Below are positions 1,353 to 27,395 of a stretch of DNA of 64,000 nucleotides, piece by piece (the first letter of the stretch is position 1; each line of letters starts with the position of its first letter). This stretch comes from Promethearchaeota archaeon. GTDB lineage: Archaea > Asgardarchaeota > Thorarchaeia > Thorarchaeales > Thorarchaeaceae. Made by a program: the position numbers and the translations under genes. The notes beneath the pieces were generated by a model, which ran no database searches, had not been told where the DNA came from, and was given only the letters and a program-made list of their open reading frames with translations. Location: contig WJMJ01000018.1 in the NCBI GenBank assembly GCA_014728035.1, positions 32,001 to 96,000 of the forward strand. Direction: 5' to 3'.

Positions 1353-2876
1353 CTAATTCATCAATATTTGTGACGCCTCAAAAGCATAGTCTAATAGAAC
1401 TCCAGGAAAGATGAATAGAATAATTATAGCCAAAGTAGAGATTATCACAGCAAACAGTGGTATCCGTGGTAATTGCATCCTCTCCACAGGTTCATCTAAT
1501 TCTTCACTGAATATCCCTTCATCCATATAGGTAACTTTCAGGATTCGTAGGTAATAACCTAATGAGAATACTGAGTTAAGCAATCCAATAAGGGCAAGCC
1601 ACCAGAAACCAACTTCAACTGCACTCTGGAATAAAATCAATTTAGACCAGAATCCTGCAGTCAATGGCATACCCGCCAAGGATAATACTAAGATTGCAAG
1701 AGATGCTGCGGCAATAGGAGATTTTCTACTTAGCCCCTTCAAATCATCATATGTGACTTGTTTTCCAAGTCTGATAGTTATGGACCAGATTAAAATGAAT
1801 ATTCCAGTCTTCATAATCGCATGGATAAATGCATGAAAGAGCGCGGCTGAAGCACCAAATTCGGTTCCTGCAGCAATACCTATGAAAAGATAACCCATCA
1901 TAGCAATACTCGAATATGCAAGCATCTTCATGATATTTTGTTCGGAGAGAGCTAGTAAGTTTCCAATAATCATAGTCAGTATCGATACGATTACTAAAAG
2001 TGGCATCCATTCTAATCTAGCTGTGAACATACCTACCATAAGTATCTGAATCAGCGCTGCTATTCCAGCTTTCTTTGTTGCACCAGCAAGATATGCGGTA
2101 ATACTTCCATCTGCAGTGCTGTACGTATCTGGCACCCACATCCACCCAGGAAATACTCCAATTTTGAAGCCAAAAGCTATGATGAAGGTAATCAAGGCCA
2201 AAATGATTGCATATGCTGCTGCGGGTGATACTGAAGATTCAGCCCATATAATAGTAATAGTGGTACCAATTGCTGATAGAGAGGTGACTCCAGTAACACC
2301 AATGATGATAGCGATTCCAAATATTAGAAAAGTAGTCGACAACAATCCCATTACAAAATACTTTGTAGCACCATCAACAGCACCACGATGGGGACCTAAA
2401 GCTACAAGTATGTATGTTGGTGTTGACATTAGTTCCCATGCAATGAAAAGAGCAACAATATCGGTTGCCATAACAACCCATATAGCTCCAGCAAATGACA
2501 TCAGCAAGAGGAAATTATAGGGACCTTTGTCCCCTCCAAATAATGTTGAAGACATCAAGACAAAAACAGCCACGACAAGAATCATGACTATGAAGAAATC
2601 AGAAAATGTGTTTCTTACAAATAGACCTCCAAAAGAAAAGCCATACGTTGCAGAATCGAAAATAAGGACCCAAATTCCAGATGTAATAACTCCAATAAAG
2701 CTGAGAGGTAAAGGATTCTTCTTCATTCCTACTAACAGAACTAGTAAAGAGAAACTCACTAGAGTCAGAGCTGGCAGAGACCCAACCCAATCAACTGGTA
2801 CTATTTGAAGAATGATATCACGCACTGGTGCTAAGACCAGTCTAACAGAATCCAAGATTGATGTGAATTGTAACAT
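1353..2876 (-). CDS. nuoN: Complex I-like antiporter subunit NuoN
   Basis: Polytopic membrane protein with WELMS..YIL, 'GATKYF', GFKIG..P..W.PD.Y, LAYSSIA and G.PLTAGF..K motifs; last gene of the nuo cluster. Confidence 0.9.
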   Translation of the reverse strand: MLQFTSILDSVRLVLAPVRDIILQIVPVDWVGSLPALTLVSFSLLVLLVGMKKNPLPLSFIGVITSGIWVLIFDSATYGFSFGGLFVRNTFSDFFIVMILVVAVFVLMSSTLFGGDKGPYNFLLLMSFAGAIWVVMATDIVALFIAWELMSTPTYILVALGPHRGAVDGATKYFVMGLLSTTFLIFGIAIIIGVTGVTSLSAIGTTITIIWAESSVSPAAAYAIILALITFIIAFGFKIGVFPGWMWVPDTYSTADGSITAYLAGATKKAGIAALIQILMVGMFTARLEWMPLLVIVSILTMIIGNLLALSEQNIMKMLAYSSIAMMGYLFIGIAAGTEFGASAALFHAFIHAIMKTGIFILIWSITIRLGKQVTYDDLKGLSRKSPIAAASLAILVLSLAGMPLTAGFWSKLILFQSAVEVGFWWLALIGLLNSVFSLGYYLRILKVTYMDEGIFSEELDEPVERMQLPRIPLFAVIISTLAIIILFIFPGVLLDYAFEASQILMN

Positions 2877-4393
2877 TATGGAACACCTCCAACTATGAAG
2901 TCTGCTGATGCACGTATCAAATCCAGAATAAGATCAGGCCAGACTCCAAGGAGAATAACAGGAATTAACATGATTATAGGAGCAATTAGATCAGACCATG
3001 GAGCATCTTCAACGTCTTTTTCAGGGTCAGGTTCACTGAAGACTATTCGATTCAGTGTCCATAGTAAATAACCTACAGTGAGAAATATTCCGAATGCAAT
3101 CACTGGCGCCCAGATATATACTACTACTGATCCAAATATGATCAAGGCCTCTGCAACAAACCCACTAAGTCCAGGCAAACCAAATGCTGCAAATGATGCG
3201 AGTATTAGAACTGCGGACATCTTCGGTGCCTTTGTCATAAGACCTTGAATATCAGGAATCTCCCGTGTTCCAGCTGCATATTTCAATTGTCCCGCCATAA
3301 TGAACATGACTGAGATAATGACTCCATGAGACACCATCATGAAGACAGCTCCTTGGATTGCTAGACTTGTTCCTACCGCAACTCCAAGTAGTACCCAAGA
3401 CATATGATTGATGGAAGTATAAGCTACCATGGATTTCATATCGGTCTGAGCTAGTGCAGTGAATGCAGCATAGATGCAAGTGAAAATAGCAAGAATTGCA
3501 AATGGAATGCTTAGCTGTACAAATGCATCTGGTATAAGCCAGAGACCCAATCGAATGAAGCCATACCCACCCATTTTCAACAATATTCCCGCAAGGATAA
3601 CAGAGCCAGGTGTGGGTGCTTTCACATGAGCCCAAGGAAGCCAATTGTGTAATGGGAAGATAGGTAGTTTCACTCCTGCACCCATAAAGACGGCTAATGC
3701 GAATCCAATCTGGATATCGATGGGGAGACCCATTTCTCTTAGTAATAGCATATTGAACGTGTGAGGAGTTGAAACAAAGAACAGGACAAAGAATCCAACC
3801 AACATCACTGCAGAGCCAAGATGTGTGTAGATGAAGAACTTGATAGCTGCATGTTGACTACCTTCTTCACCCCATCTACCAATGATAAAGAACATGGGAA
3901 TCAGAACGAGTTCCCAGAAGATGAAGAACCCAATCAAGTCCAAGGACATAAAGACTCCAAGTAGACCTGACTGTAGAAGAAGTATAAGAGCATAGTAGAG
4001 GCCTTTTGATTTGTTAATGTGATTAGAACTGATTGTTGCTATGAGAACTACAAGATTTGCTAAGATGACCATAGCAACTGAGATTCCATCAACTCCCAAA
4101 TACAACTGAAAGGAGATATCAGAAGAGCCTGTGGTAAGAGTTGCAAACGTGTACTCCCATAAGAATTGCATTCCAGCAAAGGGGTCTCCTTCTGCGTAAG
4201 TTGTGGTAATGGAGAATGCTAGGACAAAAGCTAGCACCAGTTCAATTGATGTAATCAGAAGTGCTATGCCACGAGACCCCCTCGAACCTGCAAAGTATGC
4301 TATGATTGATCCCAGGATTGGTAAGACAACCATCAGTGGAAGGATGTCGTAAGGCAATAAACCCAGAATTGTTTGTACAATATCACTCTGCAT
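2876..4393 (-). CDS. nuoM: Complex I-like antiporter subunit NuoM
   Basis: LGVDGIS, FFIFWELVLIPMFFII..WG, AAIKFFIYT, VKLP.FPLH.WLP.AH..AP, LLKMGGYG and GLPG.SGFV.E motifs. Confidence 0.92.
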   Translation of the reverse strand: MQSDIVQTILGLLPYDILPLMVVLPILGSIIAYFAGSRGSRGIALLITSIELVLAFVLAFSITTTYAEGDPFAGMQFLWEYTFATLTTGSSDISFQLYLGVDGISVAMVILANLVVLIATISSNHINKSKGLYYALILLLQSGLLGVFMSLDLIGFFIFWELVLIPMFFIIGRWGEEGSQHAAIKFFIYTHLGSAVMLVGFFVLFFVSTPHTFNMLLLREMGLPIDIQIGFALAVFMGAGVKLPIFPLHNWLPWAHVKAPTPGSVILAGILLKMGGYGFIRLGLWLIPDAFVQLSIPFAILAIFTCIYAAFTALAQTDMKSMVAYTSINHMSWVLLGVAVGTSLAIQGAVFMMVSHGVIISVMFIMAGQLKYAAGTREIPDIQGLMTKAPKMSAVLILASFAAFGLPGLSGFVAEALIIFGSVVVYIWAPVIAFGIFLTVGYLLWTLNRIVFSEPDPEKDVEDAPWSDLIAPIIMLIPVILLGVWPDLILDLIRASADFIVGGVP

Positions 4394-6586
4394 TTAGATT
4401 ACCCCCAGCCAAATCAATGCGATAATCGCCATGAGTCCAACACCAAAGATAATGACACTAACATAGTCATTCACTCGACCTGTTTGTGCATGTTGACTGA
4501 ACTCAGATGCTTCCACGCTACGGCTCGATACGCCCTCGGCAAACCCATCAACCACATTATCATCAAACCACCGTATCCTTCTAGACAGTCCAATAGCTAG
4601 ATCCGCTGAACGGAAATCAATTCCATCGATAATTCGATTGTCAATTCTTTCTCTCCACCAATTAGCAAAGGAAAGGATTTTTTTCAATATCCAATAGTAT
4701 GCTTCGTTGATATACCAACGATGACGTAGAAAGTTGTAAACTCTTCTTCTAAAGCCATTTTCAGGAATGACTGCATTTGGTGTGTCAGCACCCTTGATGT
4801 AAATAAGATACCCAGGAATACCACCCAGAGCTAATGCACCAAGCGTGATAGTAAACGGTACAAGGCCCGGCATGGTCAATTTAACCAATATCATCTCAAG
4901 CATCGTTTCAGACCATAGAGATGCTGTTAGTACCCCTTCCTCCAATACAATACCTTGAACAAACGGATAGACTGTAAATGCAACGACAGTAAATGCTGCA
5001 AGAATATACAGTGGAACCATCATTGCTGGTCCTGGGTCATGTGGCGTTTGATGGTGGCTTTCTTCTTGTTCATCATCTGCTGAATCTTCCTGTTCAAAGT
5101 TGGAAGAGCCATAGAATGTCATACCCATGAGTCGGAAACTATAGAATATCGTACATGCAGCAGCAACGACTGCAAATGCAAAGAGAACCCATCCTAGTGT
5201 GTTATGTAGTGCAAGCTCGTAAGTGTATTCAATAATAGAATCTTTTGACCAGAATCCTGAGAATGGGGGTAAACCAGAAAGAGCAAGGACCCCTATCCAC
5301 ATCACAATGAAGGTTTTCCGCATATGCTTTTTGAGACCTCCCATCTTGGTCATATATTTCGTATGAACCCCATGAATCACACCACCTGCTGCTAGAAACA
5401 GTAGAGCTTTGAATACCCCATGGCTGATAACATGAAGAATGCTTGAGAGATATGCATGTTCATAATGAGTCAATAGGCCACCTACACCAATAGCCAGCAT
5501 CATATATCCTAACTGACTCAAAGTCGAAAACGCAAGGACTTGTTTTAGCTCATTTGAAACCATACCCATAGTAGCAGTCATGAGTGCAGTAATAGCACCG
5601 ATAATAGCAACTACTGTAAAGAAGGGCAAGGCTGCTTCAAATCCAATAATCTGTAACGGGGCAAAAATCGATTCAGCATGACTTCCTCCTGCAGCTTCTA
5701 CCATGGTCACAAGAAACCTAGCGCTTATGTAGATACCAGCTTTTACCATTGTGGCTGCGTGAATCAATGCAGATACAGCAGTTGGTCCTGCCATAGCTTC
5801 GGGTAACCAGACCTGCAGAGGTGCTTGACCAGATTTTCCAATTGCGCCCATGAACAATAGTAAGAATGTAGGGACTAACATACCAGTAGATGCCATCACA
5901 CTCCACCAATGTTGGGCATCATGAGACATCTCGGTAAATGAAAAGGTTCCAGTAAAGACGAAGAGAAGAAGAATGCCTCCTAGCATGAATGCATCTCCAA
6001 TTCGAGTAACGATGAATGCTTTTGTTCCGCAATGTGTGTTGTATTCACCTTCGGTCTCAAAGTTCAGTAGTGGGTTATCAGAATCGATGTCTGAAGGGTC
6101 GGTTTCAGGAGGATTTCGTTTGTCATTCCAGAAACCAATGAGGCCGTAAGAACAGAAGCCCATTATCTCCCACCCAATAAAAGCGATAAGTAGGCTATCG
6201 CTGAGAACTAATGTAAGCATTCCACCACCAAAAGCAAGCATAAGAAAGAAGAATCTATCACGGTCCTCTTCATGCGCCATGTATTCAGTACTATATACAT
6301 AAATCAGAAAACATAATGTGCTTGCCAATATAGCCATGATGACTGATAGTGGATCTAGAAGAACTGAAAATTCTAAGTTCATAGATTCAATCCAAAGCCA
6401 AGATGTTGTGGTTGCAGGATTATTAATCTCAAATAGTAAGGACCAGCAAAAAGCCATAGCTATACCCATAATGATAGCGGGGGTCCAGTCACGTATTTTT
6501 TCACTGAATTTTCCAACAAGTGGAACTAGTAAAGATCCTGCTAAGGGTAATACAAGAATCAAGTAGTAGGGTAGTCCAAACAACAT
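4394..6586 (-). CDS. nuoL: Complex I-like antiporter subunit NuoL with extended transverse helix
   Basis: WE.MG.CSY.LIGFW, KAF..TRIGD, GKS.Q.PL..WLP.AM.GPT.VSALIHAATMV.AG, H..FKALLFL, GF.SKD, and C-terminal QTG.V..Y; GAGGTGA RBS overlaps the upstream stop. Confidence 0.95.
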   Translation of the reverse strand: MLFGLPYYLILVLPLAGSLLVPLVGKFSEKIRDWTPAIIMGIAMAFCWSLLFEINNPATTTSWLWIESMNLEFSVLLDPLSVIMAILASTLCFLIYVYSTEYMAHEEDRDRFFFLMLAFGGGMLTLVLSDSLLIAFIGWEIMGFCSYGLIGFWNDKRNPPETDPSDIDSDNPLLNFETEGEYNTHCGTKAFIVTRIGDAFMLGGILLLFVFTGTFSFTEMSHDAQHWWSVMASTGMLVPTFLLLFMGAIGKSGQAPLQVWLPEAMAGPTAVSALIHAATMVKAGIYISARFLVTMVEAAGGSHAESIFAPLQIIGFEAALPFFTVVAIIGAITALMTATMGMVSNELKQVLAFSTLSQLGYMMLAIGVGGLLTHYEHAYLSSILHVISHGVFKALLFLAAGGVIHGVHTKYMTKMGGLKKHMRKTFIVMWIGVLALSGLPPFSGFWSKDSIIEYTYELALHNTLGWVLFAFAVVAAACTIFYSFRLMGMTFYGSSNFEQEDSADDEQEESHHQTPHDPGPAMMVPLYILAAFTVVAFTVYPFVQGIVLEEGVLTASLWSETMLEMILVKLTMPGLVPFTITLGALALGGIPGYLIYIKGADTPNAVIPENGFRRRVYNFLRHRWYINEAYYWILKKILSFANWWRERIDNRIIDGIDFRSADLAIGLSRRIRWFDDNVVDGFAEGVSSRSVEASEFSQHAQTGRVNDYVSVIIFGVGLMAIIALIWLGVI

Positions 6587-6597: not shown

Positions 6598-8109
6598 TCA
6601 TGGGAGAAGTCCACTTACTCCTTCTAAACCGCTGAGTATAATATCCAAGGCTACACCTGGGAAGATTCCAAAGAACACAATTAACACTCCTAGGATAATC
6701 ATTGGAATGACCATGGAACGGGGTGCTTCAGATACATCTTCAAGTTCATCTGGGTGAGTTCCTAGAAATACCCTCCAGAGAAACCGCAACATGTATCCAG
6801 CACTAACAATCGAACTTGAAACAGCTAAAACGCTAAGAATGAGAAACTCAGGCCGAAGAATTCCAGAAGATGAGACCAGAGCTGCATCAAAACCACCTAG
6901 AAACATCATCCATTCACTTGCGAACCCGGATAATGGAGGACTACCAGCAATACTCATAGCTCCAATAGCTGCTGTAAAAGCAGTGAGGGGCATCTTATTT
7001 GATAGCCCACCCATCTTTGTAATATCACGAAGTCCAGTCTGGTGAATGACAGCTCCAGCAGCCATAAACAATAGTCCTTTGGAGAAAGCATGATTGATTA
7101 GATGGAATAATCCGCCACTAACACCCATAGTTGTATAGACTCCTAGTGAAAACAAAATGTATCCCATCTGTGAAACAGAAGAATAGGCTAGAAGACGCTT
7201 GATATCAATCTGAGCCAAAGCCATGAAACCACCATAGAACATGGTCAGCACTCCGATAACTGCAATCCAAAATGAAAGTGCTGCTGCTGCAGGACCAAGT
7301 AAAATCGACCCGAAACGAACAAGTGCATATGCACCAGTTTCAATCATAGCTCCTGAAAGAAGAACAGAAATTGGAGTTGGAGCTTCAGCATGTACAGGTG
7401 GTAACCACCAATGAATGGGAAAGACTGCCATTTTGACTAAGAATCCAGCAGCCATAAGTATGAAGATAATCTTGAGCAGGTCAGTAACTGCAGAACCAGC
7501 CAATGCAGTCTGAATAACTTGTAATTCAAAAGAGCCTGTGAGCATATAGAGGAAGCCAAAACCTACCAAAATGCACAGAGCGCCCGATTGAGTATATAAC
7601 CAGAACTTCATTGCGGTGCGCTTGCGAGTTTCAGGAAGTCCCCAGAAAAGTATCAGAAAGTAACTTGGAACAAGCATTATTTCCCAAGCGATAAAGAATT
7701 CGATGAGATTTGTTGCTAGAACCACCCACTGCATGCCCATTAGAAAGAAGAGTTGATTTGCAAAGAAAGTGGGTTTATTCTTCGTGTGATCAGTATATCC
7801 GACTGCATAAACCACTGATAGAAAACCAAGAACAACTATGGCAAATACAATAGGAAATGAAACTCCATCTAAGAATAGAGCAAATTCACCAAATACCGCA
7901 GACCACGTTGCAGCTTCTTTTGCAACCCCGCCCTCAATCATGACTCGATAAAATGGTAGAATCATCAATACCATCGAAGCAAATGAAAACCCAACTGCCA
8001 CTTTTCCAGCTGAAGTCTCTAATCGAGATTTGAGGAGATAGATTAACAGAGCTCCTACAAAGAGAACAGCAAGTGAGCTACCCATAAATGGAAAGTTCAC
8101 GAATTGCAC
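6598..8109 (-). CDS. Second NuoM/MrpD-like antiporter subunit (extra pump subunit, M')
   Basis: FFIAWE..LVPSYFLI..WG, AMKF, VKMA.FP.H.WLP..H.EAPTP.S and D.KR.LAYSS.SQMG motifs. Likely start is GTG 8109, overlapping the nuoI stop and preceded by GGAGGT (ORF track starts at 8133). Confidence 0.85.
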   Translation of the reverse strand: MQFVNFPFMGSSLAVLFVGALLIYLLKSRLETSAGKVAVGFSFASMVLMILPFYRVMIEGGVAKEAATWSAVFGEFALFLDGVSFPIVFAIVVLGFLSVVYAVGYTDHTKNKPTFFANQLFFLMGMQWVVLATNLIEFFIAWEIMLVPSYFLILFWGLPETRKRTAMKFWLYTQSGALCILVGFGFLYMLTGSFELQVIQTALAGSAVTDLLKIIFILMAAGFLVKMAVFPIHWWLPPVHAEAPTPISVLLSGAMIETGAYALVRFGSILLGPAAAALSFWIAVIGVLTMFYGGFMALAQIDIKRLLAYSSVSQMGYILFSLGVYTTMGVSGGLFHLINHAFSKGLLFMAAGAVIHQTGLRDITKMGGLSNKMPLTAFTAAIGAMSIAGSPPLSGFASEWMMFLGGFDAALVSSSGILRPEFLILSVLAVSSSIVSAGYMLRFLWRVFLGTHPDELEDVSEAPRSMVIPMIILGVLIVFFGIFPGVALDIILSGLEGVSGLLP

Positions 8110-8540
8110 TAGCGAAACCTCCGTCCTCGCCATTCTAAAGGTTCACGGTCAAGGGTGGTAATCTTATCTGGTCCATAGAGTAAATCTTCACGTTCTCCTT
8201 CGCTGATATCAACAACTTTCGTGTGATAGAGTGCTTCAAATCTACAAGCTTGAACACAGAGCCCACAGAATATACACCGGGTATAATCAAAGTACAATGC
8301 AGCATCTTTCTCATACTTTTGATCAGCTGTGTCAATTGATATAGCTACAACCGGACATGCACGAACACACTGTTTGCATGCTGTACAATTCTCTCTGACA
8401 TGAATGTGTCTACCACGAGTCCGTTCAGGATAGTCTCTATCTTCGAAGGGATAGAAGTAGGTGAAGGGTCTCTTGAAGATCTGTCTGAATACATTTTTAA
8501 GTATTTGAAATATATCACCTAGCGTTGAGAAGAATCCCAT
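8109..8540 (-). CDS. nuoI: Complex I-like 2x[4Fe-4S] subunit NuoI
   Basis: T..YP.E...P.R.RG.H followed by CxxCxxCxxxCP and CIFCGLCxxxC. ATG 8540 follows GGAGGT (the ORF-track start at 8648 lies inside nuoH). Confidence 0.92.
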   Translation of the reverse strand: MGFFSTLGDIFQILKNVFRQIFKRPFTYFYPFEDRDYPERTRGRHIHVRENCTACKQCVRACPVVAISIDTADQKYEKDAALYFDYTRCIFCGLCVQACRFEALYHTKVVDISEGEREDLLYGPDKITTLDREPLEWRGRRFR

Positions 8541-8545
8541 TATTT

Positions 8546-9676
8546 TCAACCTCCGAGAAGCAGCAATCCGGCTAATCCCGGAATATACACAATAGCAAGC
8601 ATTGCTAGCACGACATTGAGTATCGAAAGTGGTAGCAGATATTTCCAACAGTACTCTACAATCTGGTCAGGTCTCAATCGATAGAAAGATGAAGTGACAA
8701 CTATGTAGAGAAAGAAAACGATTAAAAATTTGATAATGAAGTTCATAGCTGGAGGAAGGAAAGGTAATCCAAATGACCCTCCAAAGAACAATGCAACCAT
8801 CATAGCACTGTATAGCATCTGTTCTGCAAATTCAGCAAAATAAGTCATAGTGAAATAAATTCCTGTAAACTCAGTTCTCCATCCAAAAATAATCTCTGAG
8901 TCAGCTACCGGTGAATCGAAGGGGAATGTTCCAACAGATGCGATAGAACTAACCATGAAAGTCACTAGGTTGATGGGGAGTAAAAGAACAAACCAGATAC
9001 TGTTCTGAGCTTGTGCTATACCCATTAAGCTTAGAGACCCAGCCAACATTGCAGGACCTACTGACGAGATTATCATGGGAATCTCCGCAGCAAATTGATT
9101 GTTTGCTGCTCTAAAACCCCCAATGAGAGAATATTTCGATCCGGATACCCAACCTGCTAAGAGTGCAATTACTGGTACTGCAGTTAGAAAGGCAAAGATT
9201 AGAACAAGACTAACACTGAGGTCGGCAATAAACCAAGTTGGAGACCAAGGTATGAATGCAAATGGTAGTAGAACTATCACTAATAGCAAACACGGAAGAA
9301 ATCTGAACATCCAGCGTTTTGCCTTGTCAGGGATAATGGTCTCTTTTGAAACCAGCTTGATTGCATCTGCGAACAACTGGAATCCTCCAAATTTACCAAT
9401 ATGAAATGGTCCTCGTCTGTCTTGTATCCGCCCCCACATTTTCCGGGTGAACCAGACAGAAAAAATAATTCCCAGTACAATAAATACGAGACCAGGAAAG
9501 AGTATGGCCCTGAAAAGAAACCAAAAGTTATCAATGACTGCTGCCCAAGCAAATACAAAGATTCCCCAGATGCCATTGAAGACCCAGACAATGATTCCGT
9601 GTAACCACATAATGACATCATATAGCCAAGTTGGAATGCCTGCAAGCCATTGAAAGAAATCTATCTGTAACATCAT
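8546..9676 (-). CDS. nuoH: Complex I-like subunit NuoH
   Basis: RK..GRIQ.R.GP...G..G..Q..ADAIKL..KE, SKYSL.GG.R, PFD.P.A.SE and R.RPDQ....W motifs; start after GGAGTG. Confidence 0.93.
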   Translation of the reverse strand: MMLQIDFFQWLAGIPTWLYDVIMWLHGIIVWVFNGIWGIFVFAWAAVIDNFWFLFRAILFPGLVFIVLGIIFSVWFTRKMWGRIQDRRGPFHIGKFGGFQLFADAIKLVSKETIIPDKAKRWMFRFLPCLLLVIVLLPFAFIPWSPTWFIADLSVSLVLIFAFLTAVPVIALLAGWVSGSKYSLIGGFRAANNQFAAEIPMIISSVGPAMLAGSLSLMGIAQAQNSIWFVLLLPINLVTFMVSSIASVGTFPFDSPVADSEIIFGWRTEFTGIYFTMTYFAEFAEQMLYSAMMVALFFGGSFGLPFLPPAMNFIIKFLIVFFLYIVVTSSFYRLRPDQIVEYCWKYLLPLSILNVVLAMLAIVYIPGLAGLLLLGG

Positions 9677-9684
9677 AATCACTC

Positions 9685-19506: not shown

Positions 19507-19794
19507 ATGCCAAAAGTTTGTTCAGAATGTGGAGATGCGATTCCTTCGGCAACAGCAAAACATCTTCAAAAACAGAGGTCTGACGACCGACTGGTCTGTC
19601 CTAAGTGTGTAAGCAAGCTTATCAAATCAAAAGAGTTGCATCACCCGATGTGTGAAAAATGTCGTGAACCAATAGATCCAGCTCTGCTACAAGCATATGC
19701 GGTATCAGGTCATAATGAGAACATGCCCTCATTCTGTGAGAAGTGTGGCAAGAAGGGCTCACCAAAACTTCCACCAAAACGTTTGTATGATTGA
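19507..19794 (+). CDS. Small zinc-finger protein (four CxxC)
   Basis: CSEC, CPKC, CEKC and CEKC pairs forming two similar halves. Confidence 0.65.
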   Translation: MPKVCSECGDAIPSATAKHLQKQRSDDRLVCPKCVSKLIKSKELHHPMCEKCREPIDPALLQAYAVSGHNENMPSFCEKCGKKGSPKLPPKRLYD

Positions 19795-20109
19795 ATAGCT
19801 CTCTTTGTTGGAATTTTTATCTTTGTGAGAATCTCAACAGCTGTATTTTGAATAACTCTATAATTAGATTAAAAATCGGATTTTCGCAATGTTAGAATCT
19901 TTAAATGAAACGCATGAGTAGAATACTCAGTGGCAAGATAGAAAGTATAAGTTAAATTGTGAATGGCTTTTCTCGGATGATATCGACCACATTTGACCAT
20001 TTTACATGTCGAATGGAAGATTCAGATTGCAAATTGTATATTACAAATCACAATCTATCCCGATATCGCAGACATGGATTTTGTAGGAAGTAATCAGATA
20101 CCAAAAATT

Positions 20110-20556
20110 CTAGTTTTCTGGAGGATATCTAGATGCATCTTCTTGCAACATACCTGAGGTTGTAGATTCTTCAAGAGTAGGCATGATAGAAAATCCAGCT
20201 GCTATGAAAAGAGCACCACCAACCCCCCAGGAAACCAAGAATAGGGCATCAGAGAATGTTACTGTACCATCGAGAGGGGGCATAAGCAATACGACAATAA
20301 ACATCATTGTAGCTATGACACCGGAGATTGCTAACATTGTTGGTTTTATTTTGCTCCTTTCTGGTTTGAGATACCCACCCAGACTAAAAATGAGAATTAA
20401 TGGTGCAGAGAGCAACCATGCTAGAAATGGAAATCTTTCCAGAATGTAACCAGGATTTGTGACCTCCAGATAGAGAAAATTGAAAAAATACGTGCTGAGG
20501 AGTAGTACACCTAACCAAAGAATGCAATATGATTCGCTGTCTTCTCTTAGTTTCAT
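20110..20556 (-). CDS. 4-TM membrane protein, translationally coupled to the GlcD-NuoB fusion gene
   Basis: Four hydrophobic segments; the RBS (TAGGTG) overlaps the stop codon of the upstream fusion gene; ATG at 20556. Confidence 0.7.
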   Translation of the reverse strand: MKLREDSESYCILWLGVLLLSTYFFNFLYLEVTNPGYILERFPFLAWLLSAPLILIFSLGGYLKPERSKIKPTMLAISGVIATMMFIVVLLMPPLDGTVTFSDALFLVSWGVGGALFIAAGFSIMPTLEESTTSGMLQEDASRYPPEN

Positions 20557-20565
20557 GATACACAC

Positions 20566-22506
20566 CTATGACAAGATACCTAACGCATCCTGATTTTCAT
20601 TCTTCATTTGCCAGTGAGTTGTTCCTGCTCTGATCTTATTCTGAAGAATCAGATGTGCTCGTATGAAATCTGAAGGCTTTGGCGGACAACCAGGTAGGTA
20701 AACATCAACTGGCACTACTTTATCTGGGGGAGTCATAAGTGAATATCCATCCCAAAATAGACCACCACTTGCAGCACATTGTCCAAAAGATATGACGAAT
20801 TTAGGCTCGGGCATTTGTTCGTAAATTCTTCTTAGACGGGGTGCCATCTTCTTCGTTAAACTACCCGATATCCACAGTACATCAGTCTGGCGAGGTCCAA
20901 ACAATGGAAGCATACCAAATCGTTCTACATCCCATCTGGATGCAACTCCAGCAGCACCATCAACCATACAACATCCAAGACCATATTGCACAGGCCATGG
21001 ACTATGAGCTCTCCCCCAGCGAAGAAGCCACTTTATTGGAGGTACGTTCTGAAACCACTTTAACAGAATCGGTGCAATCCTTCCAAATCCATTTCTAAGA
21101 AAATCAAAAGCAATCCACATGAAGTACTTTCCAATTCGAAGAATGAATGGAAGCCAATAAGCGAATATCTTCCCTGGATTCGATATTTCCTTTGGGTCAA
21201 ATTTCAATTTTGCACTTCGAATTCTGGCTAGTCTTTTCTTACCAAAGTATTCAGGAGCATAATTGGCAAACCATATTCCTGTAGAGTGGGCATGACCACC
21301 ATGCCGCTGTGCAATCTTGAAAATGACAAAACTCTGAGCCCAAGAAAGCATATAGAATCGTCTTCGTTCATCTTCCAAAAAATAACCCATCATCGTGACA
21401 CCTGCTTTAGATGTCACGTAACCATCCACACCAGCTTTAGCAGAGGCTTGTTCAAATTGAAAATCATCCAAGATTGCGTGAAGATTCTCAAGTGGAGCAA
21501 AGGCCTGACCAACAACGAGAGTGGGACCCGCCTTTTTGATCTTCATTGGATAGAAACGATCTTCCCATTCATGCTCCGCAACATGACGATCATAGATAGT
21601 TCCATGATATTCTTCAGTGACCTCACAAACAATTCGTAAACCAGCTTTGCGTTCATCCTCATTTCCATCAAAAGCAAATACAACAACACAGTGATGAACA
21701 GGGTAGGGGAAGGGTTCCTCCTCTTCCCATATCTTCTTCTTGAGATCAACATACTTGCTCTCTTTGAATTTGATTGTGTGAGGAATGGGAGCTTCTTCTA
21801 TTACCTTTTCAATAGCCATATTCATCAAATAATTTTCAGGAAAACTCACTACAATAGGGTCTATTGGAGTTAGAGGTTTACACTTCAGTTTAACCTTGGT
21901 AATTATTCCCAGAATTCCTTCTGTATCGCAAAATAGATCACGTTCTTTTGTCCTAACAATTTTTCCAGTAGGAAGAACAACTTCAAACTCAAGAACGCTG
22001 TCGTTAACAATACCGTATTTTAGTGAGCCAATACCATCTCCACCTTGTGCCACCCAGCCACCAATCGTAGCTGAAAGACCTGATGAGGGGTAGCATCTAA
22101 GATCGAGGTTTTGACGGTTTAGTTCATGTTGTAGATTTGCCCAAGATATACCAGGTTCTGTCCAGACCCATTCTTCTTCTGTATTGATTTCGAGAACGGC
22201 ATCCATCTCACGCATATCTACAATTATTCCCCCTTTCCGGGGAATAGCGCCTCCGTAGCCTGAGGTTCCTGCTCCCCGAGGTACTAATGGAATTTTCTCA
22301 TCATTAGCAAATTTGTAAAGAGCCTGCACCTCTCGAGGAGTTCTAGGACGCACTAACGCATCAGGGGTATTATTCATCAACCAGCCTACTTGTTTCGGAA
22401 GAGATCCGACATCTTGAGAATGGATTATAAGCTCGTGCTTTGCTGTAACTACACGACCTTGGAAAATCTCCAGAAGATTTTCAATCTGTTTATCCTTTAA
22501 TCCCAT
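20566..22506 (-). CDS. Fusion of a GlcD/D-lactate-dehydrogenase-like FAD oxidoreductase (FAD_binding_4 + FAD-oxidase_C) with C-terminal NuoB
   Basis: The N-terminal domain has PRGAGTS..GG..P, ATIGGW...GG.G..S.KYG and EG.LGIITK and ends at DP..I.NPGK. The C-terminal ~150 aa have W.R..S.WP...GL.CC, D.ERFG....PRQ.D, KMAP.LRR.YEQMPEPK.VI..G.CA.SGG.F and PVDVY.PGCPP.P, which identify NuoB. One uninterrupted frame. Confidence 0.93.
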   Translation of the reverse strand: MGLKDKQIENLLEIFQGRVVTAKHELIIHSQDVGSLPKQVGWLMNNTPDALVRPRTPREVQALYKFANDEKIPLVPRGAGTSGYGGAIPRKGGIIVDMREMDAVLEINTEEEWVWTEPGISWANLQHELNRQNLDLRCYPSSGLSATIGGWVAQGGDGIGSLKYGIVNDSVLEFEVVLPTGKIVRTKERDLFCDTEGILGIITKVKLKCKPLTPIDPIVVSFPENYLMNMAIEKVIEEAPIPHTIKFKESKYVDLKKKIWEEEEPFPYPVHHCVVVFAFDGNEDERKAGLRIVCEVTEEYHGTIYDRHVAEHEWEDRFYPMKIKKAGPTLVVGQAFAPLENLHAILDDFQFEQASAKAGVDGYVTSKAGVTMMGYFLEDERRRFYMLSWAQSFVIFKIAQRHGGHAHSTGIWFANYAPEYFGKKRLARIRSAKLKFDPKEISNPGKIFAYWLPFILRIGKYFMWIAFDFLRNGFGRIAPILLKWFQNVPPIKWLLRWGRAHSPWPVQYGLGCCMVDGAAGVASRWDVERFGMLPLFGPRQTDVLWISGSLTKKMAPRLRRIYEQMPEPKFVISFGQCAASGGLFWDGYSLMTPPDKVVPVDVYLPGCPPKPSDFIRAHLILQNKIRAGTTHWQMKNENQDALGILS

Positions 22507-22690
22507 TAGCAAACCTCTGAGGAGACTCTATTGCTTAGGAACAAACAGACCGATTTCATACATAAAAAGATAGCGAGTGATAAAAAAGGAACATGACAGA
22601 TAATTCCTCTTTCGGATACGTTAAAGATATTAGATGTGGTAAAGGAATGAAAAGATGTTCTGCTTTGTGTAAAAAGATGGAGCGATTTGA

Positions 22691-23914
22691 ATGGAATTTC
22701 CTTCACTAAAGAAACATGGATTAGATATCAACGCATTTACCTGTGCACAATGTAGTTTTTGCCAAGTGGGTCACGGAGCTTGTCCTACATACAAGGTAAA
22801 ACGTGTCGATAGCTACTCAGGGAAAGGTAAAATGCTAATCACTCGAGCATTAGCACAAAAGCGAATCAAAGAGAAGGAAGGTCTCCCGGGACTACGAGAT
22901 GCCATATTTGGATGCACCCTTTGCGGAGGATGCGAAGAAATTTGCCAAGTAGATATTCCGTTCGTAAAGATATACCAATTGATGCGGTCAGATTTCAAAG
23001 ATTTAGGAATGTGGCCTGAAGAATTGGAAGATGCTAAAGCAACTCTCACAAAGTCACGAAATATCCAAGGGCAACCACAAATGGACAGAATTGAAGGGTG
23101 GTCTTATTGGCATCCAGATGAAGATTATCTTCTGGATCGAGAAGGTGTGAAAAACAAAACTGCTTTCTTCTTGGGATGCGCTTCTTCATTCAAAGCAGTT
23201 CCAATTCAAGCCTCCATTGCCACAGCTATGATCATGGAGAAAATTGATGAGGAGTTCACCATGTTGGGGGAGGAGGAGTGGTGTTGCGGAGCCCCCCTAA
23301 TCATGACTGGGGATTTTGAAGGAGCAAAAGAATATGCAATGCATAACATCCAAAAATACCAAGAGCTAGGTGTTGAACGCATTTTCACGAATTGTCCGGG
23401 TTGTTACAAGATGTGGGCTCATGAGTACCATGAATTTCTGGGAATTGAGCATGAATTCGAAATAATCTACGGTGCAGACTTTTTCATGCGTTTACTTGAC
23501 TCTGGCAAATTCAATAATATCAGTAGCGATTACGAGGCAACAATTACATTCCACGACGGATGTGACGCGGGTAGAAATGCAGGTTTCTATGAGGAACCTC
23601 GAAAGGTACTGGAAAATTTACCGGGGATTACTTTGGAAGAATTACCTCATAATAAAGAAAATTGTTATTGTTGTGGTTCTGGTGGAGTTTTACGAGCTAT
23701 CGATAATGAATTTGCATTGAGTATAAACCACCTTAAGGTAGAAGATATCGAACAGACGAATACAGAGATAGTTGTATCTGCATGTCCTTCTTGTGTAGAC
23801 TTCATGCACAATCAACTCCCAAGTGCAGGCTCAGAAAAAGCTTCAATGGATCTTGCAGTAATAATAGCAAAATCGTTAGGTCTTGAGTGGGATGGATTAG
23901 ATGAAGTATACTAG
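22691..23914 (+). CDS. GlcF/HdrD-like Fe-S oxidoreductase (2x[4Fe-4S] plus two CCG domains)
   Basis: CAQCSFC......CP and CTLCGGCEEIC; GC, E.CCG, CPGC, HD.C..GR, CCG.GG and ACP.C motifs. Confidence 0.9.
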   Translation: MEFPSLKKHGLDINAFTCAQCSFCQVGHGACPTYKVKRVDSYSGKGKMLITRALAQKRIKEKEGLPGLRDAIFGCTLCGGCEEICQVDIPFVKIYQLMRSDFKDLGMWPEELEDAKATLTKSRNIQGQPQMDRIEGWSYWHPDEDYLLDREGVKNKTAFFLGCASSFKAVPIQASIATAMIMEKIDEEFTMLGEEEWCCGAPLIMTGDFEGAKEYAMHNIQKYQELGVERIFTNCPGCYKMWAHEYHEFLGIEHEFEIIYGADFFMRLLDSGKFNNISSDYEATITFHDGCDAGRNAGFYEEPRKVLENLPGITLEELPHNKENCYCCGSGGVLRAIDNEFALSINHLKVEDIEQTNTEIVVSACPSCVDFMHNQLPSAGSEKASMDLAVIIAKSLGLEWDGLDEVY

Positions 23915-23915
23915 T

Positions 23916-25019
23916 CTAATCCATGAATGATCTAATGTTAGATAGAATAGCTAGAAAGAGAGTCACTAGTAGCACAATCTCCCATGGAATCATTAAGCCT
24001 ACCAATAGATAGGATAGACAAAGAAGAATTCCTGTCAGCATATGGTTCTGAATAGTTCCTGCATTTGCAGGTACGAGTTCTGGAATATCATTATGGCTGG
24101 ATAAACATATCATTGATGATTTGACAGCTAAAGGAACGGTTACTAGAATGAGAAGAGTATGAAGTTGGACAAGCCCAAAAATTACTCCAATAATTATTGG
24201 AAGGTACGTTGCCGCCATGATTACAACATATCCTTTCGCAGCTCTTTTTCTTCCTAATCTTACAACCAATGTTTTCTTTTCTGCATCACGGTCTGCATCA
24301 TGGTCAGGAAATTCATTAATATAAAGAACGGCCATAATTAGAAAAGCAACAGGTAATGAAGCAATAATTGGTTCTAGTAATTCATAAACCAGCAGAAGAG
24401 GTATCGACATTATCGGTTCTTGAAGAATATTCTGAATTTGAATAGGATATTGTACATAATAAGACCCAACCACCATCAATGTTCCGAAATTCAATGCGAT
24501 GAAGAATTCTCCAATACCTCTAGTTACCAACCGAAATGGTGGAGCAGTATAAAAGAAACCACTTCCAATACCAACAATACCTAGAATAAGAATGAATACA
24601 CCAAGTTGCAAAAACAGATAGATACCGATACTTGCTCCGATTGCGAAGAAAACTAGTGAGCCGGATAGAACCTCACGAGGAGATAAGAATCCTTTCTGAA
24701 TCATTCTACTACCTCCAGTATAAGGCCGAATGAATTCTTTGTTGATATCATCAGAACCAGTCATATCCGTAGTATGATCAAAATAATCGTTGGATACATT
24801 CGCACCTATATGTAGACAAATTGCAGCAATCAGAGTTAGAAGAAAATAATCAAGCCTGAAAACAGAATGGAGACCCCATGCAATAGCTGCTCCGAGAAAC
24901 ACAGGGATAGTTGAAGCAGTTAGAAATGGTGCTCGAAGTTCGATTAGCCATGCTTTAATCTTTCCAGGATGCACCTCATCTACATCTGGGATATATTCGT
25001 CTTCAGTCACAGGAATCAA
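23916..25019 (-). CDS. menA: 1,4-dihydroxy-2-naphthoate prenyltransferase (UbiA family, MenA-like)
   Basis: LRAPFL.A...PV.LG, N..NDYFD, GGSR, YT.PP, G.GE and N...D...D....K.TL.VRLG motifs. Confidence 0.85.
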   Translation of the reverse strand: MIPVTEDEYIPDVDEVHPGKIKAWLIELRAPFLTASTIPVFLGAAIAWGLHSVFRLDYFLLTLIAAICLHIGANVSNDYFDHTTDMTGSDDINKEFIRPYTGGSRMIQKGFLSPREVLSGSLVFFAIGASIGIYLFLQLGVFILILGIVGIGSGFFYTAPPFRLVTRGIGEFFIALNFGTLMVVGSYYVQYPIQIQNILQEPIMSIPLLLVYELLEPIIASLPVAFLIMAVLYINEFPDHDADRDAEKKTLVVRLGRKRAAKGYVVIMAATYLPIIIGVIFGLVQLHTLLILVTVPLAVKSSMICLSSHNDIPELVPANAGTIQNHMLTGILLCLSYLLVGLMIPWEIVLLVTLFLAILSNIRSFMD

Positions 25020-25126: not shown

Positions 25127-26185
25127 TTGGAGGATAAAACTCAGAACCGGCCGCATCATGATGCATCAGATAGTGGTGGTCTGAGTAAGGAAGTACTACA
25201 CCATGATAAGGCGTTTCAAACATTATATAGACATTCTGGCCTTATTGAACGAGCAAGCAAGATTGAAAAGGCAATTCAAGATTTCATTCAAGAAAATATG
25301 GGGCAGCCTGAAATTCTCTATCAAGCAGCAAATCATCTTATTTTAGCAGGAGGAAAACGAACACGTTCACTTCTATCCTTGTTAGCTTGTGAAGCCGTAG
25401 ACGGAGATATTGAGAGAGCCCTTCCACTCACCATTGCAGCCGAGCTTTTACAAACAGCCTCACTGATTCATGATGACATTATTGATGCAGGAACAACTCG
25501 TAGAGGTGTTGAAGCTGTACATGAAAAATACGGAGATCACATCGCAATTCTAGCGGGAGACCTACTGATAGCAAAAGCGATAGAGATGATTGGTGAACAT
25601 GGAACAACTGAACTTCTACGTCATATTGGAAACGGTGGCGTTAGAATGTGTGAAGGAGAAGCCATCGACCTAGCATTAAGCACCGAAAAACCAAATGTGT
25701 ATTCTAAAGACCAATACTTTAAGATGATCGAGCTAAAGACAGTAGCATTTCTTAGCGAGTCAGCAAGATTAGGAGCTATGATGGGAGAAGGAAATGAAAA
25801 GCAAGTTGAAGCACTCTCAGAATTTGGTGAATATCTAGGATATGCATTTCAGATTCAAGATGATGTACTGGACTTGAGAGCTTCAATTGAAGAAATCGGG
25901 AAATCTCCATTTGCAGACCTAAAGACAAGGAGAAGCAATTTTCTTCTGGTTCATTCTCTAGAAACATCTGATAATTCTACAAGAAAATCAATCTGTGATG
26001 CTCTTGATAAAGGTCAATACGAACAGGCAGCGAATCTAGTTTTTGCTACAGGTGCCGAGGAAGAAGCAAAAAAGATTGCTAAAGAATACGTTGAGAAAGC
26101 CAAAAAAGTATTGAAAAAAGAAGAGTTGCAAAAAATCGAGTTACTCTTTGAGTTTGCAGATTCAGTTGTATCGCGTCAAAGATAA
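25127..26185 (+). CDS. trans-polyprenyl diphosphate synthase (probably long-chain)
   Basis: GGKR.R, first DDxxD (ASLIHDDIID...RRG), AILAGD, KT and second DDxxD (AFQIQDDVLD). Confidence 0.9.
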   Translation: MEDKTQNRPHHDASDSGGLSKEVLHHDKAFQTLYRHSGLIERASKIEKAIQDFIQENMGQPEILYQAANHLILAGGKRTRSLLSLLACEAVDGDIERALPLTIAAELLQTASLIHDDIIDAGTTRRGVEAVHEKYGDHIAILAGDLLIAKAIEMIGEHGTTELLRHIGNGGVRMCEGEAIDLALSTEKPNVYSKDQYFKMIELKTVAFLSESARLGAMMGEGNEKQVEALSEFGEYLGYAFQIQDDVLDLRASIEEIGKSPFADLKTRRSNFLLVHSLETSDNSTRKSICDALDKGQYEQAANLVFATGAEEEAKKIAKEYVEKAKKVLKKEELQKIELLFEFADSVVSRQR

Positions 26186-26198
26186 TTGCTTTTCTTTT

Positions 26199-27395
26199 TT
26201 AATCTAGTATCTTCATTAAAGGGACAATAATTTTCGATCCTAGTAAAACTGGAAAAGGTAACCTACATCGGATTAGCGGCTCAAGTAGAAAGGGGCCTGC
26301 TATTCCCATACTCAAATGTGTAATCAAATCGTTCGAGAGTATCTTATCTGCAATCTCACGAACCTTAACCGCATCAAATAATGTCTGCCCCATTTCTCTT
26401 TTCCATCGAATCTCGTAGTTTGATAATGAAGAAGAAGTATCCATCGAATCGATTATTGATTCGGCCGCAATTTCACCTCCAATAATAGCAGTAGGAATAC
26501 CTCCACCATTTGAAGCCATAACATGACCTGCTGCATCACCAACTAAGAGGGTGTTTTTTGTTGCTGTTATAGAAGCTGGGCCACCAATAGGAATGAGAGC
26601 TGATACTGAATGTTTCAAGGATGCATGCCTCATACATGGTTCAATCAATGGATTTCGCTTCATGAGATTCTTTAAGAAAACACGTAGAGGAAGACTCCGT
26701 TCATTGTAGAACTGCCTTAAGCCTAAGCCTAAATTCACTGACCCACCTCCTTTGGGAATAATCCATGCATATCCTCCAGGTGCAACCTGTTGACCGAAGT
26801 ACATCTCAGTTACAGACTGGTCACAAGCTGTGTCATCTAGTACGAATTGAATCGATTGACTAAATTGTGAATTAGAATGGAAATTCCCAATTGATTGGGA
26901 AATGATTGATTTGGGCCCATCAGCACCAACTATATATTTTGCAGCGAGCTCTTTAGTTCCTCGATTAGTCTTTACTAACAACCGATTCGATTCACTCTTT
27001 TCTAACACCCGAAACTGCAAATGTAGCTCAGCTCCTTGTTCAACTGCTCTTTTGACCAAGTGTTTGTCAAATCGAGCCCTATCGATGATATTTGCATTGA
27101 ACCTGAAACGCGTAATATTACCTCGTGGTGAAATCAAATGAGTCCAGTAAGTTCGATTAGTAATCAATTTGTCTGGAATGGTGGCAATTCGCTTCGCTCT
27201 TGGTGAATTAGGGAAGATATCTGAACATTCTCCCGGAGTTGGAAAATATTCTCCGCATTGTATAGGCATCCCAATTTCTTTTCTACGATCTAATAGCCCC
27301 ACTCTAATGTCATTCTCTGAAAGTATTCGAGCAGTAGTACTTCCAGCAGGTCCAGCACCGACGACTATTACGTCGTAGTCAATCTTTGCCATCAA
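26199..27395 (-). CDS. Geranylgeranyl reductase family flavoprotein
   Basis: VVGAGPAG, CG, IDR..FD..L, GADG..S, PGGY.WI.PK and LVGDAAG......GGGI motifs. Confidence 0.88.
   Translation of the reverse strand: MMAKIDYDVIVVGAGPAGSTTARILSENDIRVGLLDRRKEIGMPIQCGEYFPTPGECSDIFPNSPRAKRIATIPDKLITNRTYWTHLISPRGNITRFRFNANIIDRARFDKHLVKRAVEQGAELHLQFRVLEKSESNRLLVKTNRGTKELAAKYIVGADGPKSIISQSIGNFHSNSQFSQSIQFVLDDTACDQSVTEMYFGQQVAPGGYAWIIPKGGGSVNLGLGLRQFYNERSLPLRVFLKNLMKRNPLIEPCMRHASLKHSVSALIPIGGPASITATKNTLLVGDAAGHVMASNGGGIPTAIIGGEIAAESIIDSMDTSSSLSNYEIRWKREMGQTLFDAVKVREIADKILSNDLITHLSMGIAGPFLLEPLIRCRLPFPVLLGSKIIVPLMKILD

Follow-up and report, generated by a model that had tools for sequence, protein, structure and literature searches.

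With what the 11-subunit, NuoEFG-less relatives of complex I exchange electrons is a long-standing question, and the proposals made for it (ferredoxin and, in Methanomassiliicoccales, HdrD) are mostly inference. The same question is raised by a 64,000-nucleotide stretch of DNA, hereafter the window, which lies on contig C130 of a 4.33-Mb Thorarchaeia metagenome-assembled genome (completeness 97.9%, contamination 8.5%). The window encodes a complex I that is headless, i.e., has no NADH module, and that carries a second NuoM-like subunit (2M); its NuoB subunit is fused to a flavoprotein with a conserved CCG protein as partner, and its acceptor pocket is non-canonical. The genes were checked with an open reading frame (ORF) listing and with Pfam and NCBIfam scans, which recovered, each in its place, all the genes that an earlier interpretation of the letters (the sequence-only reading) had named. 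Homologues bear Thorarchaeota names, which supports the Asgard origin that this reading had presumed.

The two genes at the center of the question are the following:

20566-22512, minus strand: LDHD-fold flavoprotein::NuoB fusion, 648 aa (Pfam and NCBIfam)
22691-23914, plus strand: HdrD/GlcF-like protein, 407 aa, with two [4Fe-4S] and two CCG motifs and no transmembrane (TM) helix

The domains of the fusion are read in one frame, with FAD_binding_4 at residues 50-188, FAD-oxidase_C at 233-449, a hydrophobic/amphipathic linker at about 450-492 and a complete NuoB domain at 494-632. When aligned to Nqo6, PSST and NdhK, the NuoB domain carries all four Cys of cluster N2, including the consecutive doublet (GLGCC, GQCA and PGCPP), and it scores about 146 bits to these complex I proteins vs 105 bits to MbsJ. 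The ORF listing and the family scans place no nuoB between nuoK and nuoC in the window operon. The genome's other, free NuoB-like gene is of the CxxC type and sits beside a true [NiFe] group-4 hydrogenase; the fusion is the sole tandem-Cys NuoB of the genome, and no other NuoB of the complex I type is thus at hand.

When proteins of 356-1134 aa were searched with the NuoB part, 46 Thorarchaeota-type clusters showed this three-domain architecture and no other lineage did; of the 150 clusters (at 50% identity) nearest to the flavoprotein domain, the Thorarchaeota one alone has a NuoB domain. The database name of these proteins is merely "NuoB." The fusion is not described in the full-text literature that was searched, the coverage of which is incomplete, so that this is no proof of novelty; passages of a preprint on Asgard complex I (10.1101/2024.07.04.601786) treat the [NiFe]-type NuoD of Heimdallarchaeia and make no mention of a flavoprotein::NuoB fusion. 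Within the complex I family, then, the fusion is apparently an undescribed variant that spans its clade and is restricted to the Thorarchaeia.

The pump to which this NuoB would belong is encoded by a minus-strand operon running from 12710 to 1353 in the order nuoA-J-K-C-D-H-I-M'-L-M-N (scores are given against the NCBIfam cut-offs where these apply):

12261-12710, minus strand: nuoA (Oxidored_q4)
11646-12260, minus strand: nuoJ (Oxidored_q3)
11329-11649, minus strand: nuoK (Oxidored_q2)
10815-11384, minus strand: nuoC (Complex1_30kDa)
9685-10818, minus strand: nuoD, with a non-canonical acceptor pocket (best solved match MbsL, 6u8y_L)
8546-9700, minus strand: nuoH (NADHdh, 288 bits)
8109-8648, minus strand: nuoI, with two [4Fe-4S] motifs (Fer4 families; NuoI models below cut-off)
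6598-8133, minus strand: M', an extra NuoM/MrpA-like pump subunit (NDH_I_M, 307 bits against 263.8)
4394-6586, minus strand: nuoL, 730 aa, with an extended lateral helix (NDH_I_L, 474.8 bits against 407.5)
2876-4393, minus strand: canonical nuoM (NDH_I_M, 439.6 bits against 263.8)
1353-2876, minus strand: nuoN, an antiporter-like subunit (Proton_antipo_M; best NCBIfam model NDH_I_N, 282.8 bits, below its cut-off of 332.6)
20110-20565, minus strand: hyp151, a conserved 4-TM protein without His (four hydrophobic segments), candidate extra membrane subunit
12711-20109, no strand assigned: genus-specific insertion outside the conserved unit, absent in the other genera examined

With the C-terminal domain of the fusion as the only B, the 11-subunit core of the superfamily (A, B, C, D, H, I, J, K, L, M and N) is complete. 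Subunits A, J and K match the Pfam families of complex I chains 3, 6 and 4L, while H, L, M and N are best matched by Nuo-type NCBIfam models. The true start of nuoI probably lies inside the called ORF, its orthologues being 143 aa long. A complex I with a second NuoM and a NuoL helix longer by roughly 26 residues was reportedly described by Chadwick et al. in 2018 from Nitrospirota and others. The Thorarchaeia operon resembles it in having four antiporter-like subunits, M'-L-M-N, and a lateral-helix region of NuoL that is 26 residues longer than that of the non-2M NuoL-like paralogue on contig C108 of the same genome. Unlike the described 2M complexes, it is archaeal, headless and associated with a flavin/CCG module, and its M' is MrpA/MbsH'-like: the best solved relatives of M' are MrpA, MbsH' and MbhH, and the Glu of TM5 and the Lys of TM7 are retained, with the Lys of TM8 replaced by Glu. 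As for hyp151, it retrieved no informative family or Atlas match, but it adjoins nuoA in the five relatives examined and remains with nuoA in genome G007, where the fusion sits 26 kb away. In the window, nuoA and hyp151 are separated by 7.4 kb that hold a Trm112-like/UbiE-like methyltransferase, a 3-TM protein, a TPR protein, a 672-aa surface protein and a Zn-ribbon protein; this stretch is absent in G010, G062 and G024, and in G026, from the same genus as the window, the gap from fusion to nuoD is 8.6 kb.

Whether the fusion and the pump belong together was assessed in 87 Thorarchaeia species genomes (labelled G001 etc.) of the 17 genera in the class (g1-g17), which were searched with the fusion and with NuoD, a NuoD of at least 72% identity being taken as orthologous. 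Both were found in 56 genomes, the fusion only in 4, NuoD only in 6 and neither in 21, and all ten discordant genomes are incomplete (65-95%). At the level of genera, both occur in g1-g12 and neither in g13-g17. Since these genomes are kin, the pattern counts as one clade and not as 56 independent events. In 40 of the 45 genomes that have the fusion and nuoD on the same contig, the two lie on the same strand 3.0-3.7 kb apart, and the loci that were fetched share one order, with the CCG gene divergent from the fusion, followed by hyp151 and then nuoA-J-K-C-D-H-I-M'-L-M-N. The frame of the fusion is uninterrupted in most of the 60 genomes that have it. One locus, G024 C5:83582-99782 (L028), has the fusion and nuoD each split across overlapping frames and a menA with an internal TGA; we rejected it as a natural split form and read it as assembly indels or decay of the system in that lineage. 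The link between fusion and pump is thus strong. The sequence-only reading had proposed an integrated 26-kb locus; of this, the fusion, the CCG gene and the headless 2M operon do form one conserved, co-distributed unit (56/87; 40/45), while the tie to the genes for MenA, prenyl synthase and GGR is loose and 7.4 kb are the insertion of one genus. That reading had staked itself on two points, and on both it was borne out: the components are linked and co-distributed, and no NuoEFG or co-distributed FpoF exists elsewhere in the genome.

The surroundings of this clade show other arrangements. In G001, from a sister family, the 2M operon includes a nuoB that is free (152 aa) and sits between K and C. 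The closest NuoD relatives from outside the Thorarchaeia, at about 50% identity and with one cluster member labelled Njordarchaeota, belong to J-K-C-D-H-I-M'-L-M-N operons; three of these non-Thorarchaeia 2M operons (L031:1-12989, from JGI 3300031604, L039 and L040) include neither nuoB nor nuoA, and directly upstream of the first are a membrane gene with a weak NarI/HdrE-like match and a 483-aa CCG gene. Within the class, genus g14 serves as a natural "pump-less" control. Its loci L023:4445-10941 (G076) and L024:5881-12377 (G075) have the order GGR-prenyl synthase-MenA-CCG-flavoprotein, with an unfused flavoprotein of 499 aa, and no 2M nuo operon was found in the g14 genomes (90-94% complete). 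The flavoprotein/CCG module is therefore autonomous and works without the pump. The tail of the g14 flavoprotein, ...PPLKWLRNR, resembles the start of the NuoB helix, which reads PPIKWLLRWGR in the fusion and GLKSWARK in free NuoB. This suggests a truncated former fusion, but the motif is short and no NuoB remnant was found downstream of it, and the unfused form may equally be ancestral.

The next question is whether another head exists for this complex. A genome-wide search with the families Complex1_51K, 2Fe-2S_thioredx and NADH-G_4Fe-4S_3 found no NuoF, NuoE or NuoG in the 97.9% complete genome, so that the genome holds no 14-subunit NADH:quinone oxidoreductase. One orphan gene of the FrhB/FpoF family on contig C69 was rejected as a specific head, as it falls below the cut-offs (189 bits vs 269 for FrhB and 137 vs 475 for FpoF), has unrelated neighbours and occurs in all 17 genera, pump-less ones included. 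The absence of nuoEFG and fpoF claimed from the window thus extends to the whole genome, the lone FpoF-family gene not being co-distributed with the complex; unlike Fpo, the Thorarchaeia complex has no input subunit of the FpoF kind specific to it. A B-C-D-H-I set on contig C103 was likewise rejected as a second complex I, because its large subunit has both CxxC pairs and its small subunit is of the CxxC type, which marks it as a group-4 [NiFe] hydrogenase. This membrane-bound hydrogenase module (C103:77329-81107) comprises small, 30K, large, NuoH-like and 2x[4Fe-4S] subunits, and a K-L-M-N-like antiporter module lies on a separate contig (C108:11024-16469). The complex is therefore like the known 11-subunit NuoEFG-less and Fpo-like complexes in its 11 core subunits, tandem-Cys N2, NuoL lateral helix, lack of an NADH module and presumed use of ferredoxin. 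It is unlike them in that NuoB is the C-terminal domain of a 648-aa flavoprotein and nuoB is out of the operon, in that NuoD is without Tyr87, and in that a conserved extra 4-TM gene precedes nuoA.

With NuoEFG absent and a flavoprotein covalently part of the peripheral arm, the simplest idea would be that the flavoprotein/CCG pair replaces NuoEFG as the N module, passing electrons from FAD to NuoI, N2 and a quinone in forward pumping, for which the CCG protein would offer a chain of four clusters. We consider this unlikely, and less likely than the forward chain from ferredoxin to the module that is taken up below. From textbook potentials, a lactate-type couple lies about 115 mV from menaquinone, which is too little for five protons per two electrons, while the span from ferredoxin to a menaquinone-like carrier, about 350-400 mV, matches five protons in either direction. 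The energetic argument of the sequence-only reading, that the lactate-to-menaquinone gap fits an extra pump poorly, is sound on these figures. The geometry also speaks against an N module. For Escherichia coli complex I, residues 43-53, where the ordered part of NuoB begins, were built in the entire complex and not otherwise (PMC8357420); because of this, the region would be an interface position and the fusion point, by analogy, would lie near NuoH and the mouth of the quinone cavity. A tether at the membrane-proximal N-terminus of NuoB would thus be far from the distal cluster of NuoI. Finally, Tyr87 is missing from NuoD.

The partnership of the flavoprotein with the CCG protein is supported by three kinds of evidence: divergent adjacency, relatives with Fer4 and CCG domains, and a predicted complex. 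The CCG gene is divergent from the fusion gene and 178 bp away. Its product follows the HdrD/GlcF-type pattern, with two CxxCxxCxxxC motifs (Cys 18/21/24/31 and 75/78/81/85) and two complete CX34-35CCX35-36CXXC motifs (Cys 163/198/199/235/238 and 291/327/328/365/368), and these Cys are invariant or nearly so (at least 90%) across the alignment. Many relatives of the flavoprotein, close ones included, carry Fer4 and CCG domains in the same polypeptide. The predicted complex of the flavoprotein domain with the window CCG protein reached an interface score (ipSAE) of 0.87 vs 0.00 for the best control, a value that 58 of 80 solved complexes attain, as against 2 of 110 mismatched pairs, these counts being approximate for our prediction, which used its own alignments. 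Three runs agreed in at least 96% of contacts with a partner confidence (pLDDT) of at least 90, and the predicted interface puts the ferredoxin-like domain of the CCG protein on the FAD face of the flavoprotein. The model thus supports binding of the two. Six further adjacent pairs of a flavoprotein of the FAD_binding_4 family and a CCG protein are encoded in the genome (C37:34217-36750, C45:33033-35601, C71:4265-6819, C94:81961-84984, C151:94036-97033 and C38:767-3751), a large paralogous set of Fe-S-linked dehydrogenases.

What the flavoprotein domain itself does is harder to say. Its predicted structure (pLDDT 90.5) has the two-domain VAO-type FAD fold of GlcD and of D-lactate and D-2-hydroxyacid dehydrogenases, as Pfam also indicates, and the closest folds are mouse D-lactate dehydrogenase LDHD (TM-score 0.82) and LctD of the Acetobacterium Ldh-Etf complex (0.81), followed by the ether-lipid enzyme alkyl-dihydroxyacetone-phosphate synthase (AGPS; about 0.79). 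The sequence subfamily is large, with 330 representatives at E<1e-30, and its members are named only "FAD-binding and (Fe-S)-binding domain-containing protein." In the alignment, the HxGDGNxH and GEHG positions read GYVTSKAGV and HAHSTG in the window flavoprotein, and the 50 closest cluster representatives are also without these motifs and have other conserved motifs in their place. By alignment, no His/His/Glu metal site like that of D-lactate and D-2-hydroxyacid dehydrogenases can be identified across the subfamily, which is why GlcD is not an apt label for the flavoprotein; with the GlcD model TIGR00387 it reaches 140 bits, the cut-off being 568, and it is also far below the YdiJ cut-off. 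The 2-hydroxyacid assignment of a GlcD/GlcF-type couple in the sequence-only reading does not survive this. The pair remains like the Fe-S-linked D-lactate and 2-hydroxyacid dehydrogenases (GlcDF and the Dld-II/YdiJ type) in its FAD_binding_4 and FAD-oxidase_C fold and its partnered or fused module of two [4Fe-4S] and two CCG motifs; it is unlike them in the lack of an alignable His/His/Glu site, in falling below the GlcD and YdiJ cut-offs and in its fusion to NuoB.

One relative shows that this subfamily has been fused to a quinone-site subunit a second time, independently. At the archaeal locus L032:5758-13780 (GCA_046760505.1, JBHIEG010000010.1), two multihaem cytochrome c genes and a Fer4_11 Fe-S protein gene are followed by an NrfD::flavoprotein fusion of 867 aa, 41% identical to the window flavoprotein domain, NrfD being a quinone-site membrane subunit. 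Among relatives outside the Thorarchaeia, this is the closest fused one and the second-closest overall, and beside it are a divergent Fer4_8+CCG gene and a gene for a UbiE-type methyltransferase.

That methyltransferase, together with a close standalone homologue of the flavoprotein that sits between UbiD and a 4HBT thioesterase, the clustering of the pair with MenA, prenyl synthase and GGR in the window and in g14, and the resemblance of the fold to AGPS, would suit a quite different role, in which the pair makes, modifies or repairs a prenylated cofactor and the fusion is there for assembly or delivery and not for respiration. We regard such a role as unlikely, somewhat more so than the N-module replacement. 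A 1:1 fusion of a biosynthetic enzyme to a structural Fe-S subunit would lack precedent, the four-cluster CCG partner suits sustained electron transfer, and the relatives share the domain architecture of Fe-S-linked D-lactate dehydrogenases, albeit by Atlas label only.

The acceptor pocket in NuoD bears on what the pump reacts with. Compared to Thermus Nqo4, His38 and Asp401 are kept, Asp139 is Glu, position 86 is Cys, Tyr87 is Met (ERLCMLEA), Phe146 is Leu and position 403 is Tyr, so that of the two quinone ligands, His38 is present and Tyr87 is not. This pattern is fixed in all Thorarchaeia orthologues examined; positions 86-87 read Cys-Met there, Ser-Met in the Njordarchaeota-type relatives, Asp-Tyr in canonical sequences (R[LM]DY) and Cys-Val, with a C-terminal Cys, in mbx/MBS-like ones. 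According to Degli Esposti (2015), Fpo already has Tyr87, Phe146 and Asp401, which are taken as the earliest signature of quinone/methanophenazine reactivity and are absent from mbx, which do not use quinone (PMC4758237). Cys86 and Cys403 are vestigial [NiFe] ligands, and the Thorarchaeia NuoD keeps only Cys86. Judged by its residues, the pocket is intermediate between the MBS type and the Fpo/Nuo type, with a complex-I-type NuoB and arm, His38, one vestigial Cys and no Tyr87.

Given this pocket, a sulfane-sulfur (polysulfide) reductase of the MBS kind on a complex-I-type membrane arm also has to be weighed. Like the MBS/MBX of Thermococcales, the Thorarchaeia NuoD has one vestigial [NiFe] Cys, namely Cys86, and no Tyr87, its best solved sequence match is MbsL, and M' is most similar to MrpA and MbsH'. 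Unlike MBS/MBX, the complex has a complex-I-type NuoB with the Cys doublet and a higher score to complex I than to MbsJ, a Nuo-type arm (A, J, K, H and an L with a lateral helix) and His38, and it lacks the second vestigial Cys. MBS has a three-Cys proximal cluster and no His38 (PMC7684303), and the two vestigial Cys, three-Cys cluster and Mrp-type membrane module that together would define MBS/MBX were not found in the Thorarchaeia complex. The system as MBS proper is ruled out, and as an MBS-like reductase, which would leave the fused flavoprotein unexplained, it is very unlikely, the least likely of all the readings considered here.

The remaining genes of the proposed 26-kb locus concern the carrier:

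23916-25019, minus strand: MenA-like UbiA prenyltransferase (TIGR00751 menA, 104.4 bits against 102.15; other MenA equivalogs below cut-off)
25127-26185, plus strand: polyprenyl diphosphate synthase (polyprenyl_synt, 205 bits)
26199-27395, minus strand: geranylgeranyl-reductase-family flavoprotein, GGR (GG-red-SF, 228 bits against 158.8)

The prenyl synthase has small residues (A, S) at positions -5/-4 of its first DDxxD, which does not settle its chain length because the genome's other paralogue has small residues there as well. Genome-wide, MenD and MqnA/D were not found, nor was MenB above its cut-off, and quinol oxidisers of the NrfD family or cytochrome bd were likewise not found. The menaquinone-like carrier of the sequence-only reading is accordingly not supported, and in NuoD a Met replaces the quinone ligand Tyr87; a carrier with another head group could account for the altered pocket. 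The MenA-like gene occurs in g1-g15, more widely than the pump, and in some genomes, 20-30 kb separate the MenA-like/prenyl synthase/GGR block from the fusion; the block also persists in genera without pump and flavoprotein. In g13 and g15, which have no pump, the orthologous prenyl synthase/MenA pair directly follows crtB-crtI-lyeJ-cruF (L041:4375-10982 and L042:4711-11233). The carotenoid cluster of the window's own genome is on another contig (C125:971-5343); the Thorarchaeia cluster is of the haloarchaeal type, with phytoene synthase, phytoene desaturase, a UbiA-family elongase-like protein and a Caroten_synth/CruF-like protein. The link of the flavoprotein/CCG pair to MenA is thus recurrent but loose.

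A pocket of this kind, together with a missing head-group pathway and no quinol oxidase found, would also fit a pump that needs no free carrier at all. Here the flavin/CCG module would be a built-in terminal reductase of a forward, ferredoxin-driven pump, and electrons would run from ferredoxin through NuoI and N2 to the CCG protein and FAD and on to a soluble acceptor (a 2-oxoacid or disulfide, for example). In Methanomassiliicoccales, an Fpo-like complex and HdrD have been postulated to work together (cited in PMC4758237), and the Thorarchaeia complex resembles that system in pairing a headless pump with an HdrD-type CCG protein and in its NuoD His38 and NuoB Cys doublet; NuoD without Tyr87 and Phe146, with those two features kept, is also what the Fpo-like complex of Methanoplasma has (PMC4758237). 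The differences are that the Thorarchaeia link is hard-wired by fusion and synteny, includes a flavoprotein and has no methanogenesis context or heterodisulfide. An HdrD-like protein tied to NuoB through the gene fusion of its partner, and the Njordarchaeota-labelled 2M operon with NarI/HdrE-like and CCG genes directly upstream, are in line with a terminal reductase. Against it, g14 keeps the flavoprotein and CCG genes by MenA without the 2M pump, and the module must therefore have another redox partner; MenA, prenyl synthase and GGR are adjacent in many genomes, the acceptor is unassigned, and the membrane NarI/HdrE-like subunit in the Njordarchaeota-type operon suggests a lipid carrier there. 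We hold this forward chain to be a real if tentative contender, nearly as likely as the reverse flow favored below.

Our preferred reading, to which we give a probability of roughly 0.4, is that of a ferredoxin-linked 2M pump coupled at the level of the quinone cavity to a flavin/CCG oxidoreductase. On this account, nuoB was removed from the operon and appended C-terminally to an LDHD-fold flavoprotein, which would be membrane-associated and work with the soluble CCG protein. At NuoI, the pump would trade electrons with ferredoxin, in line with proposals for other headless complexes, and at the cavity end, N2 would exchange them with a prenylated membrane carrier, its head group unspecified. 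The fusion would tether the flavin/CCG module beside the cavity entrance, where it may act as a carrier-linked oxidoreductase for an organic substrate, exchanging electrons with the pump via the carrier or directly at N2, so that pump and module would form a short chain, ferredoxin <-> carrier <-> substrate. Architecture and pairing stand as shown; of the chain itself, the carrier, the ferredoxin and the direction are what we infer. Coupling at the carrier level would be consistent with the g14 module without a pump, with the NrfD-fused relative and with the interface position of the NuoB tether.

As to direction, substrate electrons may flow to the carrier and from there, driven by the proton gradient through the 2M pump, to ferredoxin, which would serve to make H2 or to reduce CO2. 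At five protons per electron pair, this reverse step would be feasible even with a modest gradient. The genome, which also encodes EtfAB, has in the latter and in the six further flavoprotein/CCG pairs candidate electron donors, and in the group-4 hydrogenase a candidate ferredoxin sink; reverse flow is slightly favored over forward flow because of the many candidate donors, the ferredoxin sinks and the lack of any quinol oxidase found.

Several points weigh against the ferredoxin-linked, carrier-coupled pump. The flavoprotein's substrate is unassigned, and ferredoxin docking at NuoI is presumed by analogy (e.g., PMC9723677). Tyr87 and Phe146, signature positions of quinone/methanophenazine reactivity (PMC4758237), are Met and Leu in NuoD. 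The known pathway for a naphthoquinone head group was not found in the genome, and the MenA-like/prenyl synthase pair is not specific to the pump system. Nor does this reading account for the fusion of just one of the seven flavoprotein/CCG pairs in the genome. Lastly, we agree with the sequence-only reading that nothing in the sequence fixes the direction, and any of the three options that it had offered, reverse flow, a ferredoxin donor or bifurcation, may still apply.

Elsewhere in the window, an ankyrin-repeat protein of at least 436 aa (1-1311, plus strand), which runs off the window start, flanks the nuo operon, and a 5-fold beta-flower protein (27414-27926, minus strand) lies between the GGR gene and mutS. 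A set of genes for the non-oxidative pentose-phosphate pathway lies between mutS (27897-30497) and mutL (36792-38588), and at 46076-59033 on the minus strand are an 893-aa ORF, the C-terminus of which is SpoIIM-like, and a pair of very large neighbouring ORFs of 1979 and 2266 aa.

For headless complex I, the locus means that a partner has been marked by evolution, practically every member of 12 genera having a flavoprotein covalently joined to NuoB and a conserved HdrD-like protein adjacent, and the fusion offers a concrete and directly testable electron partner. A bolder and more doubtful version of the carrier-coupled pump would make this a new hard-wired respiratory unit, in which the module, sitting where the N2 cavity of a five-proton pump opens, acts as a gradient-driven substrate:ferredoxin oxidoreductase or the converse, through a novel, non-naphthoquinone prenylated carrier to which the pocket (Cys86, Met87 and Leu146) would be adapted. 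The finding bears on the evolution of the complex I quinone site and on energy conservation in the Asgard archaea, the closest prokaryotic relatives of eukaryotes; if true, the hard-wired unit would be an Asgard-specific way of lifting mid-potential electrons to ferredoxin.

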